Below the pieces are notes generated by a model. That model worked only from the letters and a program-made list of their open reading frames with translations, was not told the origin of the DNA and did no database searches. The position numbers and the translations under genes were made by a program. From the IMG/VR virus record IMGVR_UViG_2731639221_000003, positions 3,072 through 67,071 of that record: DNA of 64,000 nt, one strand, 5' to 3'. This document shows positions 33,244-42,976 of the stretch, one piece after another. Each line of letters opens with the position of its first letter. The first letter of the stretch is position 1. Source of the DNA: a virus.

Positions 33244-33966
33244 TTAAATTTTGAAATGAATGTCAAAATTTCTATTTTGTTGGTTTATAATCTCTTTTAC
33301 TTCTCCGTCATATAATTTATCTTTTATTCTTAGAATACTTACTAATTTCCAATGCACTAGATTACAGGGTAAATTAAGCGGGATTCTTAACCAAGCCTTT
33401 TTTAAATCCTCAATATTTTGAATTGATGCTACTTTATATCCTCTGGTATAACTGATTTTTACCTGCTCATAATTTACAGATAGCTTATATCTAGTATATC
33501 CTTCTTCTGTAATATTTAAATGTAGAAATTGATCTCCAATTTTTTCAAATAGAATGAAGATACTGCCGTTTGAAATTTCCAGAATACTCCAAATCTGGCT
33601 GGGAAATGTTTTTGTTTCCGCATAATGTGGATTTTCTTTTTTTTCGTAATACAGCGTATTTTTTTCACGATCAAAATATTTATTAATATATCCCGAAGTT
33701 GTAGGAGTTTCTAGGTAAAGTTCAAAATGGAGGTCATTTAATAAAATCATGTTTTTATATTTCTCATCCTCAATCTCTTTTTTTCTTTGAATAAATTCTT
33801 CCCTTATTATACTAATGACAGAAAGAATACATAGTATTATTCCCGAAGTGAATAATACTATTCTAACAATGCTATCTTCTTTTATAAAAGCAGGAATAAT
33901 ACTGATAAAAACGCCTAAAATTGAAAGAAATATCTTAATTTTCAACATAATATATATAATAAACAA
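33244..33966 (-). CDS. Low-GC membrane-anchored hypothetical protein (edge of the insert)
   Basis: Two N-terminal hydrophobic helices. Confidence 0.65.
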   Translation of the reverse strand: MFIIYIMLKIKIFLSILGVFISIIPAFIKEDSIVRIVLFTSGIILCILSVISIIREEFIQRKKEIEDEKYKNMILLNDLHFELYLETPTTSGYINKYFDREKNTLYYEKKENPHYAETKTFPSQIWSILEISNGSIFILFEKIGDQFLHLNITEEGYTRYKLSVNYEQVKISYTRGYKVASIQNIEDLKKAWLRIPLNLPCNLVHWKLVSILRIKDKLYDGEVKEIINQQNRNFDIHFKI

Positions 33967-34065
33967 ATAGACTAATGATACATTTAACTTTTAGCTATAA
34001 ATTGCAGTTTTAGCTTATACTTAAAATATTAAGTTTACTATTACATTGATATGATTGATTACAAG

Positions 34066-35415
34066 CTATTCCTTCCTGATTTTCAGAAATATCGAAGGTA
34101 ATTTATCCGCTTTAGCTTTCTCCTTAGCTATATGATCGAGCCAACGGGCGTACAGGTCATTCGGTAGTTCTTCGTAACCTAAATCATCCATCTGCTTATA
34201 TAAGGCTTGCATTTGCTCGAAATGGGTATAGGCTTCGGGCAACATTTCTTTCATTATATCGGGCTTGGGAGCTTGCAGTAAATGAGCCAGTGTAAGAGTT
34301 AGCTGTGTTTCGTAGTCCGCTTTGAACATCAATGCTCTGACGCTGTTAGGCGAGTATTGCATCACTATATCGGCACATTTGAGTATAAAATCATCATAGC
34401 CGTATTTTTGATAATAGCCTCTCATCAGATGGGTTAGAAGTTCGGCGATGGCTTTCTTTTTTTCCATCGGTTCAAGGTATAACCCGTTCTGGATGGCTTC
34501 GGCTTTGATAAAACCGTTATTCATATAATGAGTGTCGCTAAGTATTCCCTGACAGGTAAGTTCTACATTGTACCAATTATTCTTGTCGTCCTGTATTTTG
34601 ACAAAAGAGTGTCTGGGGGAAAAAGACCAATAGGCTTCTGCTCCCATTTCTTCGGCTAGGGTTAAGTAATATAAAGGCATGGACTCACATTGCCCTTTTC
34701 CTGTACGCATAAGGGTGGTTACAAAATGGCTGTCGAAACTTATATGTGAATCATAATCATCTAAGTTGTATTTTACGGGGTAATGGAATAGTTTCTTTTT
34801 GGTCGTTTTATCTCTTGTTTCCAATGTATCGGACATATAGCGGAATAACATCATGTTTTTGGTAAGGTTGTCGTTTTTGTCCAGTTTTTCATCTTCCATT
34901 ATTTGATTACAGAAATCGACACTGCTTTTTATAGAGCTTCGGTATTCATTGTAATCTATGGCATTGTCGTAGTAGGCGTTCTCGATCAGGAATATGGCTC
35001 GTCCGATATTTAACGGGGTATCGCCTTTCAGCATACTATTTATTTCGTCAAAGGCATTGTAATAGTTTGCTGTGCCTTCGTTGTGAGCCAGCGAGGGGAA
35101 ACCGCCTTTGAGTAGCATTTGAATATCTGTCTGCCGTTGGATTTCGCCTAACATTTGCTGGTGTTCTGATACTTCACGCTGTATGGCTGCATTTCTTTGT
35201 TGGACGTTTGTAATTGTGGCTGCATCCTGTTGATAGTTTTGAGGTGTGATTGTTTGACTGTTCGGGTATAGGTTATATATGTTGTTGTTAGGTGTTGTAG
35301 GTATATTGGGCTTAATAACAGGCAGACTAGGGATAACAACGGGAGAACTTTGTGCCAGAAGATGTAGCACAAAGAAAGACAGGATATAGGCTATACTGAT
35401 TCTCTTTTTTACCAT
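34066..35415 (-). CDS. Secreted transglutaminase/papain-like protein with TPR-like C-terminus (paralogue B)
   Basis: Signal peptide, Q/N/P-rich linker, GQC...PRH...NVE putative Cys-His-Glu triad. Confidence 0.65.
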   Translation of the reverse strand: MVKKRISIAYILSFFVLHLLAQSSPVVIPSLPVIKPNIPTTPNNNIYNLYPNSQTITPQNYQQDAATITNVQQRNAAIQREVSEHQQMLGEIQRQTDIQMLLKGGFPSLAHNEGTANYYNAFDEINSMLKGDTPLNIGRAIFLIENAYYDNAIDYNEYRSSIKSSVDFCNQIMEDEKLDKNDNLTKNMMLFRYMSDTLETRDKTTKKKLFHYPVKYNLDDYDSHISFDSHFVTTLMRTGKGQCESMPLYYLTLAEEMGAEAYWSFSPRHSFVKIQDDKNNWYNVELTCQGILSDTHYMNNGFIKAEAIQNGLYLEPMEKKKAIAELLTHLMRGYYQKYGYDDFILKCADIVMQYSPNSVRALMFKADYETQLTLTLAHLLQAPKPDIMKEMLPEAYTHFEQMQALYKQMDDLGYEELPNDLYARWLDHIAKEKAKADKLPSIFLKIRKE

Positions 35416-35427
35416 AATTGTTACACT

Positions 35428-36447
35428 TTATCTTTTTATAACTACCGATCTCATGCGTTGGTCGGATTTATCGGCACTGAGTGAGCCGAGCCAGTTTTGA
35501 TACATTTTAGACGGCATCTTTCTGTAACCGAGTTGATGTATGGTAGCATATAGGGTGTTCATTTCTTCCATTCTACTATTGTCTGGCGTTTGCTTATAGA
35601 GTGCGGTAAGTATTTCTCCTTTAAGCAACATGGCATTGATATAGTTGGGGAAATGTTCTAAGGCTGTATCGCAGCATTTAATAATAAAGCTGCCGTCACC
35701 GATTCCGCATTTTGCCTGATAGCCTTGTGCCAAATCCAAGAGGGTCATGGCTACGGCTTCTTTGTCAGTCAGAGCCTTCATATAAACTTTGTTCCTGATA
35801 GCGTCTATATGGATATAGCCTGATGCCATTAACCACGCATCAGTAGGAAAGTCGGAGCAAGTAAGTTCTATATTGTACCAGCCTACTTTTTTGTTTTGTG
35901 CTTTTATATAAATATGATTGGGGGCGAGGGCTAAGTGGCATTCCTGTCCTAGTTTGTCCATTATCATTTTATATAAATAGGGTAATGAATGGCAATTGCC
36001 TTTATTAGTATCAAAAAGCGTAGAGACAAACATATTAGACCATTCTTTTTGCCCTGCGTAATCTTCATAGTTATAAGAAAATGGTATGCTACCGACAATA
36101 TCAGTACCTACCGAAATACGAACTGTATCTGTCATAAAAAGAAATACGGCACATTGAGCCATAGCGACCTCTTTATCCCTCTCTGTATATTCAAGACTGC
36201 CATTAGTCATTAAACTTTTGCAGATAGAAGTGTATAATTGAATATTATCCTTAAACTTCTTTTCATCCAGTTCCCCTTCATAATAAGCATTTTCAGTCAG
36301 GAAAACTGCTTTTTGAAAATCAAGTGGACTATTATCGAAAAGCATGGTGTTAATTCCTGTAAATGCTTCTTTATAATAGGTCTGCTGTGCATTGATATTA
36401 GTTACAAGTAAGCTGATAATCAATACAAGTATAATTCGTTGTAACAT
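35428..36447 (-). CDS. Secreted transglutaminase/papain-like protein with TPR-like C-terminus (paralogue A)
   Basis: Signal peptide, GNC...PNH...NIE triad; aligns by eye with 34066..35415 (FQKAVFLTENAYY vs IGRAIFLIENAYY). Confidence 0.65.
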   Translation of the reverse strand: MLQRIILVLIISLLVTNINAQQTYYKEAFTGINTMLFDNSPLDFQKAVFLTENAYYEGELDEKKFKDNIQLYTSICKSLMTNGSLEYTERDKEVAMAQCAVFLFMTDTVRISVGTDIVGSIPFSYNYEDYAGQKEWSNMFVSTLFDTNKGNCHSLPYLYKMIMDKLGQECHLALAPNHIYIKAQNKKVGWYNIELTCSDFPTDAWLMASGYIHIDAIRNKVYMKALTDKEAVAMTLLDLAQGYQAKCGIGDGSFIIKCCDTALEHFPNYINAMLLKGEILTALYKQTPDNSRMEEMNTLYATIHQLGYRKMPSKMYQNWLGSLSADKSDQRMRSVVIKR

Positions 36448-36456
36448 ATTTCATAT

Positions 36457-41956: not shown

Positions 41957-42061
41957 AGAAGTGAGAATTTGGTTCTAATGCTCAGGAATCCCTAAACCCG
42001 TTATTAAACAGGCTTAGAAATTGGTGTTGGTATATCTCCTTAGAGACTGTTACTATTCAGA

Positions 42062-42376
42062 TTATTTGATACTGTCGCTATCCTGATCGGTAGCTATACT
42101 TTCTTTGGGTGTATCAACAAATTGACTTTTGGGGTCGCCACTTCCTCCCGTATTTCCCAGACCGGCAGAAAACACTTGTGGTTGCGGGTTAGAAATTAGT
42201 GTGTCGCTACTGTTTTTAACTACTTGATTTGCGTTTTTCAATGACTCTATTTTGGGATCACCGCTACCGCCTGTATTGCCCAGACCCATATCTTCTATTT
42301 CGGCATTGGAACAGGAAGAAAAAACAAATACAATGGAACATAGTAAACTGAAAAAGGTAAAGCATTTAATTTTCAT
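42062..42376 (-). CDS. Small lipoprotein with two identical GLGNTGGSGDPK peptides
   Basis: Lipobox-like VFSSC; repeats at 42251-42286 and 42128-42163 differ at 7 synonymous and 0 non-synonymous sites. Confidence 0.75.
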   Translation of the reverse strand: MKIKCFTFFSLLCSIVFVFSSCSNAEIEDMGLGNTGGSGDPKIESLKNANQVVKNSSDTLISNPQPQVFSAGLGNTGGSGDPKSQFVDTPKESIATDQDSDSIK

Positions 42377-42573
42377 AATACAATTTTTGAATGTGGGAAT
42401 AATAGATTAATTTGGACGCTAGGTTTAGTTTAGTTCTTAATCCTGCAAATCTAGCACGCTATAACGCAAAAAACAATACTTTTACTGCCCTATATAGATT
42501 TTTGTTAAAGCCATAGCAATCTAAATAACTTATATTAAGATATATACCAGATAGTAAGTATACTTATCATACA

Positions 42574-42885
42574 GATTTTTTTTAGAGCCGTCTTATTAAA
42601 AACAGTAAAATATGATGGGTTAATTTCTAAAAAAAATGGCGTTCCTTTTGCTAAAATATGTAAAAATGATTCGTATCAATGACAGTATGATAAAACACTA
42701 TAATTATAGGTTTGTTTGCCCCATACAGATTTTACAGCTTTTAAAAACGTTAATATAAACATTGTTAAGAAATTAAAAAAACGACATGCGGATTTTTTTA
42801 GAGCCGTCTTGTTAAAACAGTAAAATATGATGGGTTAATTTCTAAAAAAATGCCATTTTTTTGCTAAAATATATAAAAATTGATT
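42574..42885. repeat. About 95-bp imperfect direct repeat pair (42574-42671, 42791-42885)
   Basis: Both copies contain AGAGCCGTCTT..TAAAACAGTAAAATATGATGGGTTAATTTCTAAAAAAA...TTTGCTAAAATAT.TAAAAAT. Confidence 0.85.
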
Positions 42886-42976
42886 TATCGGGTGGGAATT
42901 GTTCATTCCATCCGAAGCATTCTATCGGGATGAAATATGAAGGTATTCCCAATTTTGGCACATCCTAAAAAATAGC

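Follow-up and report, generated by a model that had tools for sequence, protein, structure and literature searches.

Evolved (specialised) Hcp proteins, or Hcp-ET, carry a C-terminal toxin extension and have an immunity gene downstream; they are described from Enterobacteriaceae and are said to occur in gut Bacteroides as well (PMC13213661). A different layout is found in the Sec-dependent toxins described by Zhang et al. (2012; PMC3482391), in which an N-terminal "inactive transglutaminase" domain is followed by RHS and toxin regions. The toxin and immunity pairs given there include Tox-JAB-1/Imm65 and Tox-JAB-2 (DUF4329)/Imm-NTF2-2, the motif of Tox-JAB-2/DUF4329 being E, H[ST]H, S and D. 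Polymorphic toxins with a MuF domain, such as Bxa, are encoded by prophages of Bacteroidales (PMC11699363).

The DNA analyzed here is a stretch of 64,000 nucleotides (the window) from what appears to be a temperate siphophage-like prophage of a Dysgonomonas-type host. Its tail module contains a block of host-type genes that a preliminary description had read as a prophage-borne interbacterial conflict locus, a reading that our results support. The block is likely to be a real conflict island, that is, moron cargo of host origin captured at the boundary between the phage genes p158 and p151 and made of three portable modules (A, B and C). It had also been proposed that the combination is not a described system. 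The combination is indeed new, as is its location in a phage, but the parts belong to described classes, namely evolved Hcp, Tox-JAB-2 and the toxins with signal peptide, transglutaminase and Rhs regions (PMC3482391). As with the MuF toxins, toxin and immunity genes are here fitness cargo of a Bacteroidales prophage. The MuF ones, however, are fused to a phage head protein and belong to the head module, whereas this island has host-type modules without a phage domain and lies in the tail module.

The insert and its phage flanks

The conserved phage gene p158 (32727-33203, plus strand; phrog_10156, 8.6e-36) is separated from p151, the tail gene in the Dit position (43058-43513, plus strand; phrog_6305 tail protein, 59-71% identical in relatives), by an insert of 9.79 kb (33204-42993, no strand assigned) that runs from the p158 stop to the AGAGGCA-hairpin leader of p151. 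Within it there are nine minus-strand genes (33244-42376), all with intact reading frames. The flanks are phage genes, among them the tape measure (26985-32171; phrog_9959, 3.7e-102) and more tail proteins. In two related prophages (G087 and G089) the order is TMP-p158-p151-p993 and p158 lies only ca. 100 nt from p151, which makes the 9.79 kb a true insertion. The antisense block of about 9.8 kb reported to split the order tape measure - small gene - Dit was thus confirmed, both by the nine minus-strand ORFs and by the empty sites in relatives (L019 and L020). At 0.351, the GC content of the insert is close to the 0.367 of the host genome; the late genes that flank it are at 0.44. As in other phage morons, the extra genes are found amid conserved phage genes, with their own orientation and composition, and are missing in related phages. 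Upstream of the cassette there is a conserved, possibly regulatory segment (42382-42584, no strand assigned), 84% identical in Dysgonomonas sp. ZJ709. Two direct repeats of ~90 nt and 91% identity (42577-42667 and 42793-42880, spanning 42577-42880 without strand) are found in the genome only at the insert locus.

Gene content of the three modules

The first gene of module B (minus strand) was called at 38565-40223, but its true start is likely at 40157, giving 38565-40157. The product, without signal peptide, consists of a TssD domain (residues 1-160), a beta-rich middle domain (175-290) and a metzincin-like protease (290-495). The TssD domain scored 55 bits against PF17642 (cut-off 25.8) over profile positions 32-128 and has an Hcp fold, the matches being B. 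fragilis Hcp5 (7yw0, Z 13.5, rmsd 2.6, 115 aligned) and 8gra (E 4.6e-8). The protease domain matched none of the Pfam peptidase families; its fold is that of metzincins, with Ulilysin (2cki, Z 9.8, 172 aligned), ADAM8 (Z 9.8) and mirolysin (6r7u, Z 8.8) as neighbours. The motif HExxHxxxxxH plus NIMNY is kept across homologues, with H405, E406 and H409 invariant and H415 nearly so. Compared with the metzincin HExxHxxGxxH there is an R in place of the G, and in the Met-turn NIMNY N448 and Y452 are invariant and M450 nearly invariant. Elsewhere this domain forms fusions with RHS (P0018-20), a PAAR-like DUF4280 (P0017) or an Rhs-core stub (L023). Judging from these sequence features, the protein is an evolved Hcp effector whose protease domain is the predicted toxin, common to several delivery carriers and with an immunity gene downstream. 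It shares with Hcp-ET the N-terminal T6SS tube domain, the C-terminal toxin domain used also by Rhs and PAAR-like carriers and the immunity candidate that follows. It differs in having as toxin a metzincin-fold protease without a Pfam family, and as immunity candidate a protein of TonB_C fold.

This candidate is a secreted protein of 159 aa encoded 9 nt downstream of the evolved Hcp (38076-38555, minus strand), and all ten of its structural neighbours carry TonB_C (TM 0.55-0.59, Atlas fold). A homologue comes after the protease in every locus examined, whatever the carrier of the protease. Since it always follows the metzincin domain, the protein is likely to be an immunity protein and not a part of the export route suggested before; the other preliminary gene calls (toxin, immunity, TPR, transglutaminase) mostly hold. 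Gene order, fusions and folds indicate that it likely neutralises the metzincin. A function as TonB energy transducer was considered separately and rejected, the cleavable signal peptide being directly before the domain, with neither membrane anchor nor Pro-rich spacer.

Module C, also on the minus strand, is built around a toxin of 317 aa (37023-37976) with a Sec signal, a 90-aa pre-toxin domain, the last ~30 residues of an Rhs core (ending in DPDGR) and a Tox-JAB-2/DUF4329-like tip. The Rhs-core remnant scored 24.5 bits with TIGR03696, under the cut-off of 32.5, and covers only positions 46-75 of the 76-position profile. The Rhs/YD-repeat shell and the full core were looked for in the 317-aa toxin and RHS repeats were not found. 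In the tip, E97, H151, H153, S166 and D169 show no variation among 16 homologues and form the JAB-like motif E..HxH-x12-SxxD, in which the HxH-x12-SxxD spacing is the same as in the DUF4329 toxin of ZJ709. The match to Pfam DUF4329 was weak (E = 0.32, and 0.047-0.34 for close homologues) and hhalign against the Toxin-JAB1 set gave a probability of 1.4%, so that "JAB-like" is a putative assignment at the level of the motif. Two nucleotides after the toxin gene comes the immunity candidate, a lipoprotein of 187 aa (36457-37020), and this pairing is kept in three other loci (L028, L030 and L036).

The remaining genes of module C code for two helpers. The short one (35428-36447) is a secreted, transglutaminase-like plus TPR protein (SirB1/menin-like) according to its fold and conserved triad; its long paralogue (34066-35415) is 31% identical and has an extra N-terminal region of ~95 aa. 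The helper model (pLDDT 92.7) resembles UPF0162 (SirB1/YchA; E 4.6e-8, TM 0.52/0.61) and menin (E 5e-4), which have the same transglutaminase-like core packed on TPR-like helices; unlike these proteins, to which they are only ~12-16% identical in sequence, the helpers are secreted and toxin-linked. In a Pfam profile search neither of the two window helpers had a match, and their homologues gave only sub-threshold hits to Transglut_core/core2. The Cys-His-acid triad is conserved among 40 sequences (C152 in at least 90%, H178 and E194 invariant), making catalysis putative. Fusions of 600-800 aa also exist, formed by signal peptide, helper domain, pre-toxin domain and variable tip. Because the helper is fused to the toxin front end in many genomes, the helpers most likely act on the toxin in the envelope, where they would bind, hold or process it, and gene order and folds point in the same direction.

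Among 80 Bacteroidota loci with helpers, at least two in tandem were found in 70, and the pre-toxin domain was on the same strand in 68. The core of the module (helper pair and toxin front end) is, by these sequence criteria, phylum-wide in Bacteroidota (68/80 loci). The pair of transglutaminase-fold helpers with a shell-less Rhs-tip toxin is thus a widespread system, apparently undescribed. It shares with the PMC3482391 toxins the signal peptide, the transglutaminase-fold domain, the Rhs-derived junction, the swappable tip, the JAB motif E..H[ST]H..S..D, the lipoprotein immunity candidate and the restriction to Bacteroidota. On the other hand, there is no YD-repeat shell here, the helper is a separate gene with two paralogues and the Cys-His-Glu triad is conserved instead of lost. 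The Neisseria MafA-MafB-MafI system (PMC4287609) is similar on paper, with a Sec-exported toxin of constant front end and variable tip, a conserved accessory protein that is also exported, and an immunity gene, but the accessory protein has a different fold and the likeness is one of layout alone.

Module A has two minus-strand genes. One encodes a Gly-rich lipoprotein of 104 aa (42062-42376) with two copies of the GLGNTGGSGDPK motif and a ZJ709 homologue 39% identical. The other (40295-41956) encodes a protein with a lipoprotein-type signal, a TPR region (TPR_12, 3.2e-14) and a single transmembrane helix followed by a cytoplasmic tail of 160 aa. The protein is 65% identical in ZJ709 and matches the BT3442-family at 1.2e-16, far below the cut-off. 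Similar small Gly-rich lipoproteins precede each TPR paralogue. Residues 395-553, in the cytoplasmic tail of the TPR protein, had neither a Pfam nor a PDB sequence match; a LuxR-like helix-turn-helix pattern read by eye makes the tail a putative DNA-binding region. Gene order, fusions and folds suggest that module A is probably regulatory and controls expression. The ninth gene codes for an orphan membrane protein (33244-33966, minus strand) without relatives. It is missing from L008 and L028 and belongs to the cassette in none of the other copies seen, and contigs from other samples diverge at ~34085.

Delivery in the host and value to a lysogen

In the host genome (99.99% complete, 73 contigs) a T6SS locus on contig C12 contains TssE, F, N, K, G, VgrG and PAAR and is cut off by an integrase gene. 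Neither profile searches nor tblastn with the loci of two relatives found TssC (PF17541), TssB or an ordinary TssD in this genome. The PF17541 probe was validated on relatives (18/170 genomes positive), PF05943 being useless as a TssC probe in Bacteroidota, and TssC is present in the carrier genomes G075 and G085. No T6SS with sheath and tube, needed to fire an evolved Hcp, was therefore detected in the same genome, and for this reason module B is probably not launchable in this host. The missing genes could lie in an assembly gap, though the locus visibly ends at the integrase gene. This is a further difference from Hcp-ET: the pair is cargo of temperate phages and, in the present case, resides in a host that has neither sheath nor tube genes. 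Contigs from RNA libraries of other samples cover parts of B and C, and say nothing on transcription in this strain.

Where it can be fired, the product of module B would be a tube subunit taking a metzincin-type zinc protease into the periplasm of a rival, and the secreted TonB_C-fold protein would neutralise the protease in sister cells. Module C would provide a Sec-exported polymorphic toxin with constant front end, Rhs-core stub and swappable JAB-like tip, accompanied by its lipoprotein immunity candidate and the two secreted transglutaminase-fold/TPR helpers. In the lysogen, module C is the plausible working weapon and the lasting value of module B would be its immunity gene. The island indicates that prophages can spread contact-dependent as well as secreted toxin-immunity modules between Bacteroidales strains. 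The strain also offers a phage-borne example of the helper pair with a shell-less Rhs-tip toxin, and a convenient one, since the genome has no copy of module C other than that of the prophage.

The absence of sheath and tube genes would also fit an island that is mainly defensive or decaying, with immunity genes that guard the lysogen from the same toxins while its own toxins stay undelivered. Two decayed cassettes of this type adjoin p158 fragments in the genome, and acquired immunity islands are known from Bacteroidales (cited in PMC10470768). Nevertheless, all nine frames are intact and the catalytic motifs kept, and module C needs only Sec and its own helpers, both present, so we regard this explanation as rather unlikely. 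The strain is also a natural test case for the role of an evolved Hcp in a cell with a broken T6SS. A scenario in which temperate phages of Dysgonomonadaceae shuttle ready-made antagonism modules through a leader-bounded p158-p151 cargo bay, the evolved Hcp-metzincin working without the host T6SS, for example via prophage-induced lysis or vesicles, is a speculative one to which we give little credence; it would account for an evolved Hcp that stays intact although sheath and tube are gone from the host.

Mosaic composition and the p158-p151 site

The neighbourhoods in other genomes bear on the earlier proposal of one unit for sensing, toxin action and export. In that proposal sensing would fall to the TPR protein and killing to the toxins, and the TonB-C-like, transglutaminase-like and membrane proteins would together make up a dedicated route of export. 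Co-occurrence elsewhere was borne out, as Dysgonomonas sp. ZJ709 has the same A+B+C gene set in nearly the same order with no phage genes nearby. The TssD-protease and the TPR protein are 63-65% identical in both genomes, the 84% identical upstream DNA travels with the set, and ZJ709 has swapped the toxin tip (DUF4329, 1.7e-23) and the immunity gene (Imm-NTF2-2). However, B and C are apart far more often than together, and none of the 80 helper loci has TssD, the metzincin protease or the TPR protein of module A. Module C is also found alone, and so is module B, among housekeeping genes; the latter occurs too at a different position in a close relative of this phage (TerL 89%, MCP 84% identical). 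The presence of the TonB_C-fold protein depends on the protease domain rather than on the locus, the membrane protein is missing from every other copy seen, and there is no outer-membrane component or other export machine in the block. The single-unit proposal is accordingly improbable. The block is a mosaic in which one orphan gene accompanies three portable modules.

It is still less credible that the genes serve the phage itself, with the Hcp-like protease as a tail-tube-like or lysis accessory, or in envelope remodelling or superinfection exclusion. The Hcp fold does match phage tail tubes (Z ~9) and two related phages carry the TssD-protease/TonB_C pair, but the best fold match is to the Bacteroides T6SS Hcp5 at its higher Z, the genes lie on the strand opposite to the tail operon, T6SS-positive genomes have the same pair among housekeeping genes, and the tail modules are complete in insert-free relatives.

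Capture of host cargo fits better with what is found at this site in other phages. A related prophage (G074) has a different cargo of 6.3 kb at exactly the same point, with a C39-peptidase ABC exporter, an ABC ATPase and thioredoxin-like and membrane proteins. In the host genome itself, remnants of a lipoprotein and TPR pair come directly after p158 on contigs C20 and C39. The boundary between p158 and the leader of p151 is a recurrent insertion hot spot of the tail module, which has received a toxin island in this prophage and a bacteriocin exporter in the relative. The G074 insert, the junction remnants and a 230-kb contig with phage genes in register on both sides make a chimeric assembly, which the preliminary description had named as a possible objection, hardly conceivable.

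The leader of p151 (42995-43042, plus strand) consists of ACAGAGGCA, then a GC-rich hairpin (dG -23.6, z -5.2) and a T run. AGAGGCA-N4-AGCCC with a hairpin is present at 5 sites in the window, versus 0.85 pattern matches expected by chance, a family of elements that marks operon starts. The late-leader element earlier assigned to the downstream tail genes is therefore real, but it was not acquired with the insert: insert-free relatives carry the same leader, so it is ancestral and marks an old transcription-unit boundary.

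An antisense insert at a tail-gene junction

The host genome (5.12 Mb, 99.99% complete), in which the window is positions 120963-184962 of contig C4, has Dysgonomonas as its nearest named relatives. Near the insert, its prophage contains a portal (16598-18139), a large terminase (19038-20636) and a major head protein (22552-23712), followed on the left by the tape measure protein (TMP, 26985-32171) and by p158, a 158-aa gene of phrog_10156 that stops at 33203. On the right, tail proteins run onward from 43058, the start of p151, a 151-aa gene in the Dit position. Nine minus-strand ORFs fill the space between the p158 stop and the p151 start. 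The preliminary description of an antisense insert interrupting the tail genes was borne out by related prophages in two genomes, G087 and G089, which have the gene order TMP-p158-p151-p993 and only ~100 nt between p158 and p151. Their short spacer, together with an element shared at 42995-43042, delimits the insert to 33204-42993 (9.79 kb). Its GC content (0.351) matches that of the host genome (0.367), unlike the phage late genes (0.44), and the cargo looks host-derived by this compositional measure; the alternative of foreign low-GC DNA was ruled out, since the late genes are the deviating part. No match to the insert was found in the phage collection by megablast and there is no recombinase gene within it, while scanning for sigma-70 promoters and terminators gave matches no better than chance. 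Between TMP and p158 there are 555 nt without genes (32172-32726), of which 32352-32640 was matched at ~92% identity by a contig of another sample.

The spacer in G087 and G089 contains ACAGAGGCA, then a GC-rich hairpin and a T run, and the same element is found in the window at 42995-43042 (hairpin dG -23.6 kcal/mol, z -5.2). The pattern AGAGGCA-N4-AGCCC is present at five window sites (10312, 20685-20699 on the minus strand, 21157, 42997 and 53523), all of them just upstream of operon starts, with a chance expectation of 0.85 pattern matches. It is a leader element common to the phage transcription units. The late leader formerly ascribed to the downstream tail genes is therefore real, as one of this five-site family, but did not arrive with the insert, since the insert-free relatives have it. 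The p158/p151 junction was a transcription-unit boundary before the insertion, which may explain why it tolerates cargo.

A mosaic of modules

The block had been described as one sensing, toxin and export unit. The sequence comparisons indicate a mosaic of modules: A (a lipoprotein and a TPR protein), B (a TssD-metzincin fusion and a 159-aa protein) and C (a mini-Rhs toxin, a lipoprotein and two helpers). All of them are found in Dysgonomonas sp. ZJ709 (JAAKEM010000029), in a one-strand cassette that adjoins conjugative-element genes and has no phage genes with it. In order, and with percentages for identity to the window, it encodes a lipoprotein, a TPR protein (65%), a TssD-protease (63%), a secreted neighbour (24%) and the long helper (35%); next comes a mini-Rhs protein, its front end 43% identical and its tip of DUF4329 type, then Imm-NTF2-2 and finally the short helper (41%). 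The genes do occur together elsewhere, and the possibility that they do not, raised in the preliminary description, can be set aside. Module B alone was found as a two-gene island amid housekeeping genes in the related genome G085 and in a metagenome. The TssD-metzincin and its 159-aa secreted neighbour are also present (4504-6650) in a closely related phage contig, L027 (terminase 89%, portal 78% and head protein 84% identical to this prophage), at a different site, next to methyltransferase and portal genes. Module C alone appears elsewhere as islands of four or more genes. Furthermore, parts of all three modules were found at 90-99% identity, without the phage flanks, in bat-gut and "whole organism" metagenome contigs from other samples, including two RNA libraries; the modules thus circulate elsewhere. 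The remaining gene codes for a 240-aa membrane protein (33244-33966, minus strand) with no detectable relatives in Atlas and Pfam searches, and no other cassette copy seen has it. The combination of the three modules is new.

In module A, the lipoprotein (42062-42376, minus strand) carries GLGNTGGSGDPK twice. The TPR protein (40295-41956, minus strand) starts with a lipoprotein signal; its TPRs (TPR_12, 3.2e-14) and a single membrane helix are followed by a 160-aa tail in which a LuxR-like pattern was read by eye; the tail had no profile match and no PDB sequence match. The protein is weakly like the BT3442 family (1.2e-16, far below the cut-off), a likeness of some interest because BT_3442 heads a MACPF gene cluster of B. 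thetaiotaomicron (PMC2954219). Seven more TPR paralogues are found in the host genome. Upstream of the lipoprotein gene, the window and ZJ709 share 84% identity over 200 nt. Two more lipoprotein and TPR pairs bracket the ZJ709 cassette on the opposite strand (L008, 5318-7314 and 16126-17772), three paralogous pairs lying inside 12 kb. From the conserved upstream DNA of the cassette to the p151 leader there are direct repeats of ~90 nt (42577-42667 and 42793-42880; 91% identical, 215 nt apart); a genome-wide mobile element was ruled out, these being the only two copies in the genome. Between the TPR and Hcp-fusion genes, immediately past the TPR stop, lies a perfect AT-only inverted repeat (40256-40293) with arms of 17 nt and a spacer of 4 nt.

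The p158/p151 junction holds different cargo in a related prophage of G074 (L018, 5940-12260). There, 6.3 kb in sense orientation code for a C39-peptidase ABC exporter (703 aa), an ABC ATPase, a thioredoxin-like protein and three polytopic membrane proteins, which looks like a bacteriocin-type export/immunity set. The host genome has a second, damaged prophage (contig C20, L017, 8125-12382) in which a 66-aa Gly-rich lipoprotein and a truncated TPR gene come after p158, and then a chimeric fibre gene stands in place of Dit and Tal. On contig C39 (32948-35573) a p158 fragment precedes a 72-aa lipoprotein (92% identical to its counterpart in the pair flanking the ZJ709 cassette) and a TPR protein (85% identical to its own counterpart there); further on are remnants of the 159-aa and 449-aa genes. 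The G074 cargo and these two remnants argue that such cassettes entered the junction more than once, and the recurrent lipoprotein and TPR pairs would be plausible substrates for homologous recombination. A scan of viral contigs with p158 gave one match, at a contig end. The carriage of conflict modules in a tail-module hot spot is new; polymorphic toxins borne by Bacteroidales prophages are known as MuF fusions (PMC11699363).

An evolved Hcp and the remains of a T6SS

The TssD-metzincin fusion of module B (38565-40157, minus strand) has three domains. Residues 1-160 are a TssD domain (PF17642, 55 bits); B. fragilis Hcp5 (Z 13.5) and the Hcp of 8gra are the closest matches to its predicted fold. 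Residues 290-495 combine an invariant HExxH, followed at six residues by a third His, with a NIMNY Met-turn, and their predicted fold is metzincin-like (ulilysin Z 9.8, ADAM8 9.8, mirolysin 8.8). The protease domain was also found behind RHS repeats, the PAAR-like DUF4280 and a bare Rhs-core stub, and carrier swapping of this sort marks polymorphic toxin domains.

A secreted protein is encoded directly 3' of the protease gene in the five carrier loci compared (window, L008, L009, L024 and L027), and likewise, with weaker resemblance, after the Rhs-stub form (L023). These neighbours are 23-27% identical to the 159-aa protein of the window (38076-38555, minus strand) and conserve C33 and W135-x-P137-A138. 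The TonB-C-like fold suggested earlier for this protein was confirmed in the prediction, all ten Atlas neighbours being TonB_C domains (TM 0.55-0.59). At 159 aa it lacks the length of a TonB, and its occurrence follows that of the toxin; we therefore read it as a candidate periplasmic immunity protein. An immunity candidate of this fold is new for a metzincin toxin.

The fusion has no signal peptide and should therefore need a T6SS. The T6SSiii probes were PF17541, PF17555 and tblastn with proteins of the T6SS loci of two relatives. PF05943 (VipB) detected no TssC in 61 Bacteroidales genomes, T6SS-positive ones included, and is unfit for T6SSiii; PF05943, PF05591, PF05947 and PF05936 were all negative in the host genome and were discarded because PF05943 missed all T6SS-positive relatives. 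One locus (contig C12, 10244-19905; L014) codes for TssE, TssF, TssN, TssK, TssG, VgrG and PAAR with a VasX_N-type toxin. It ends at TssE, where an integrase gene, followed by AhpC/AhpF, occupies the place of TssD, TssC and TssB in relatives. No match to TssB, TssC or ordinary TssD genes or their neighbours was found in the host genome with PF17541, PF17555 and the relatives' proteins. Both other family genomes with a full-length fusion homologue, G075 (69%) and G085 (46%), have TssC. The simplest reading is that, with the host's T6SSiii apparatus decayed, module B would be a stranded effector pair of which the immunity gene alone would still pay. Evolved Hcps are known, reportedly also from gut Bacteroides (PMC13213661); an intact one in a host without sheath or tube genes is new.

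A mini-Rhs toxin with two secreted helpers

In the 317-aa toxin of module C (37023-37976, minus strand), a Sec signal and 90 aa of constant region lead into the last ~30 residues of an Rhs core (TIGR03696, 24.5 bits, below the cut-off), behind which is a C-terminal domain. In this tip E97, H151, H153, S166 and D169 are invariant (E..HxH-x12-SxxD), with the same spacing as in the ZJ709 DUF4329 toxin and in agreement with the motif listed for Tox-JAB-2 (= DUF4329) by Zhang et al. 2012 (PMC3482391). The tip can be called JAB-like at the motif level, profile support being weak: profile-profile comparison with Toxin-JAB1 was not significant. The search found 333 relatives of the toxin; among the 120 listed, some share only the front end and have other tips (such as M91 peptidase or Toxin-JAB1) and others have the JAB-like tip behind RHS repeats. 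The gene of the 187-aa lipoprotein (36457-37020, minus strand) starts 2 nt after the toxin gene and is conserved together with it. Tox-JAB domains with lipoprotein or NTF2-type immunity were reported by Zhang et al. 2012 (PMC3482391).

The short (339 aa, 35428-36447) and long (449 aa, 34066-35415) helpers, both secreted and on the minus strand, are paralogues (31% identical). In the model of the former (pLDDT 92.7), TPR-like helices pack against a transglutaminase-like core; the closest structures are UPF0162/SirB1/YchA (E 4.6e-8), FBXO21 and menin. Cys152, His178 and Glu194 are conserved (40 homologues), and the triad is thus kept here, whereas the N-terminal transglutaminase domain of Sec-type toxins was called inactive by Zhang et al. 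2012 (PMC3482391). The helper family comprises 1363 clusters (E <= 0.001), and all 13 members of 600-800 aa compared are fusions of signal peptide, helper domain, pre-toxin region (the constant front end of the toxin) and variable tip, an architecture that ties the helper to the toxin. Module C is predicted to need only Sec and its own helpers, and being the sole copy of that system in the host genome it is added by lysogeny as a new trait. No description of a two-helper, shell-less Rhs-tip system was found in the literature searched. TssD, the protease and the TPR protein were found in none of 80 helper loci taken across the Bacteroidota; at least two tandem helpers were present in 70 of these and the pre-toxin region was on the same strand in 68.
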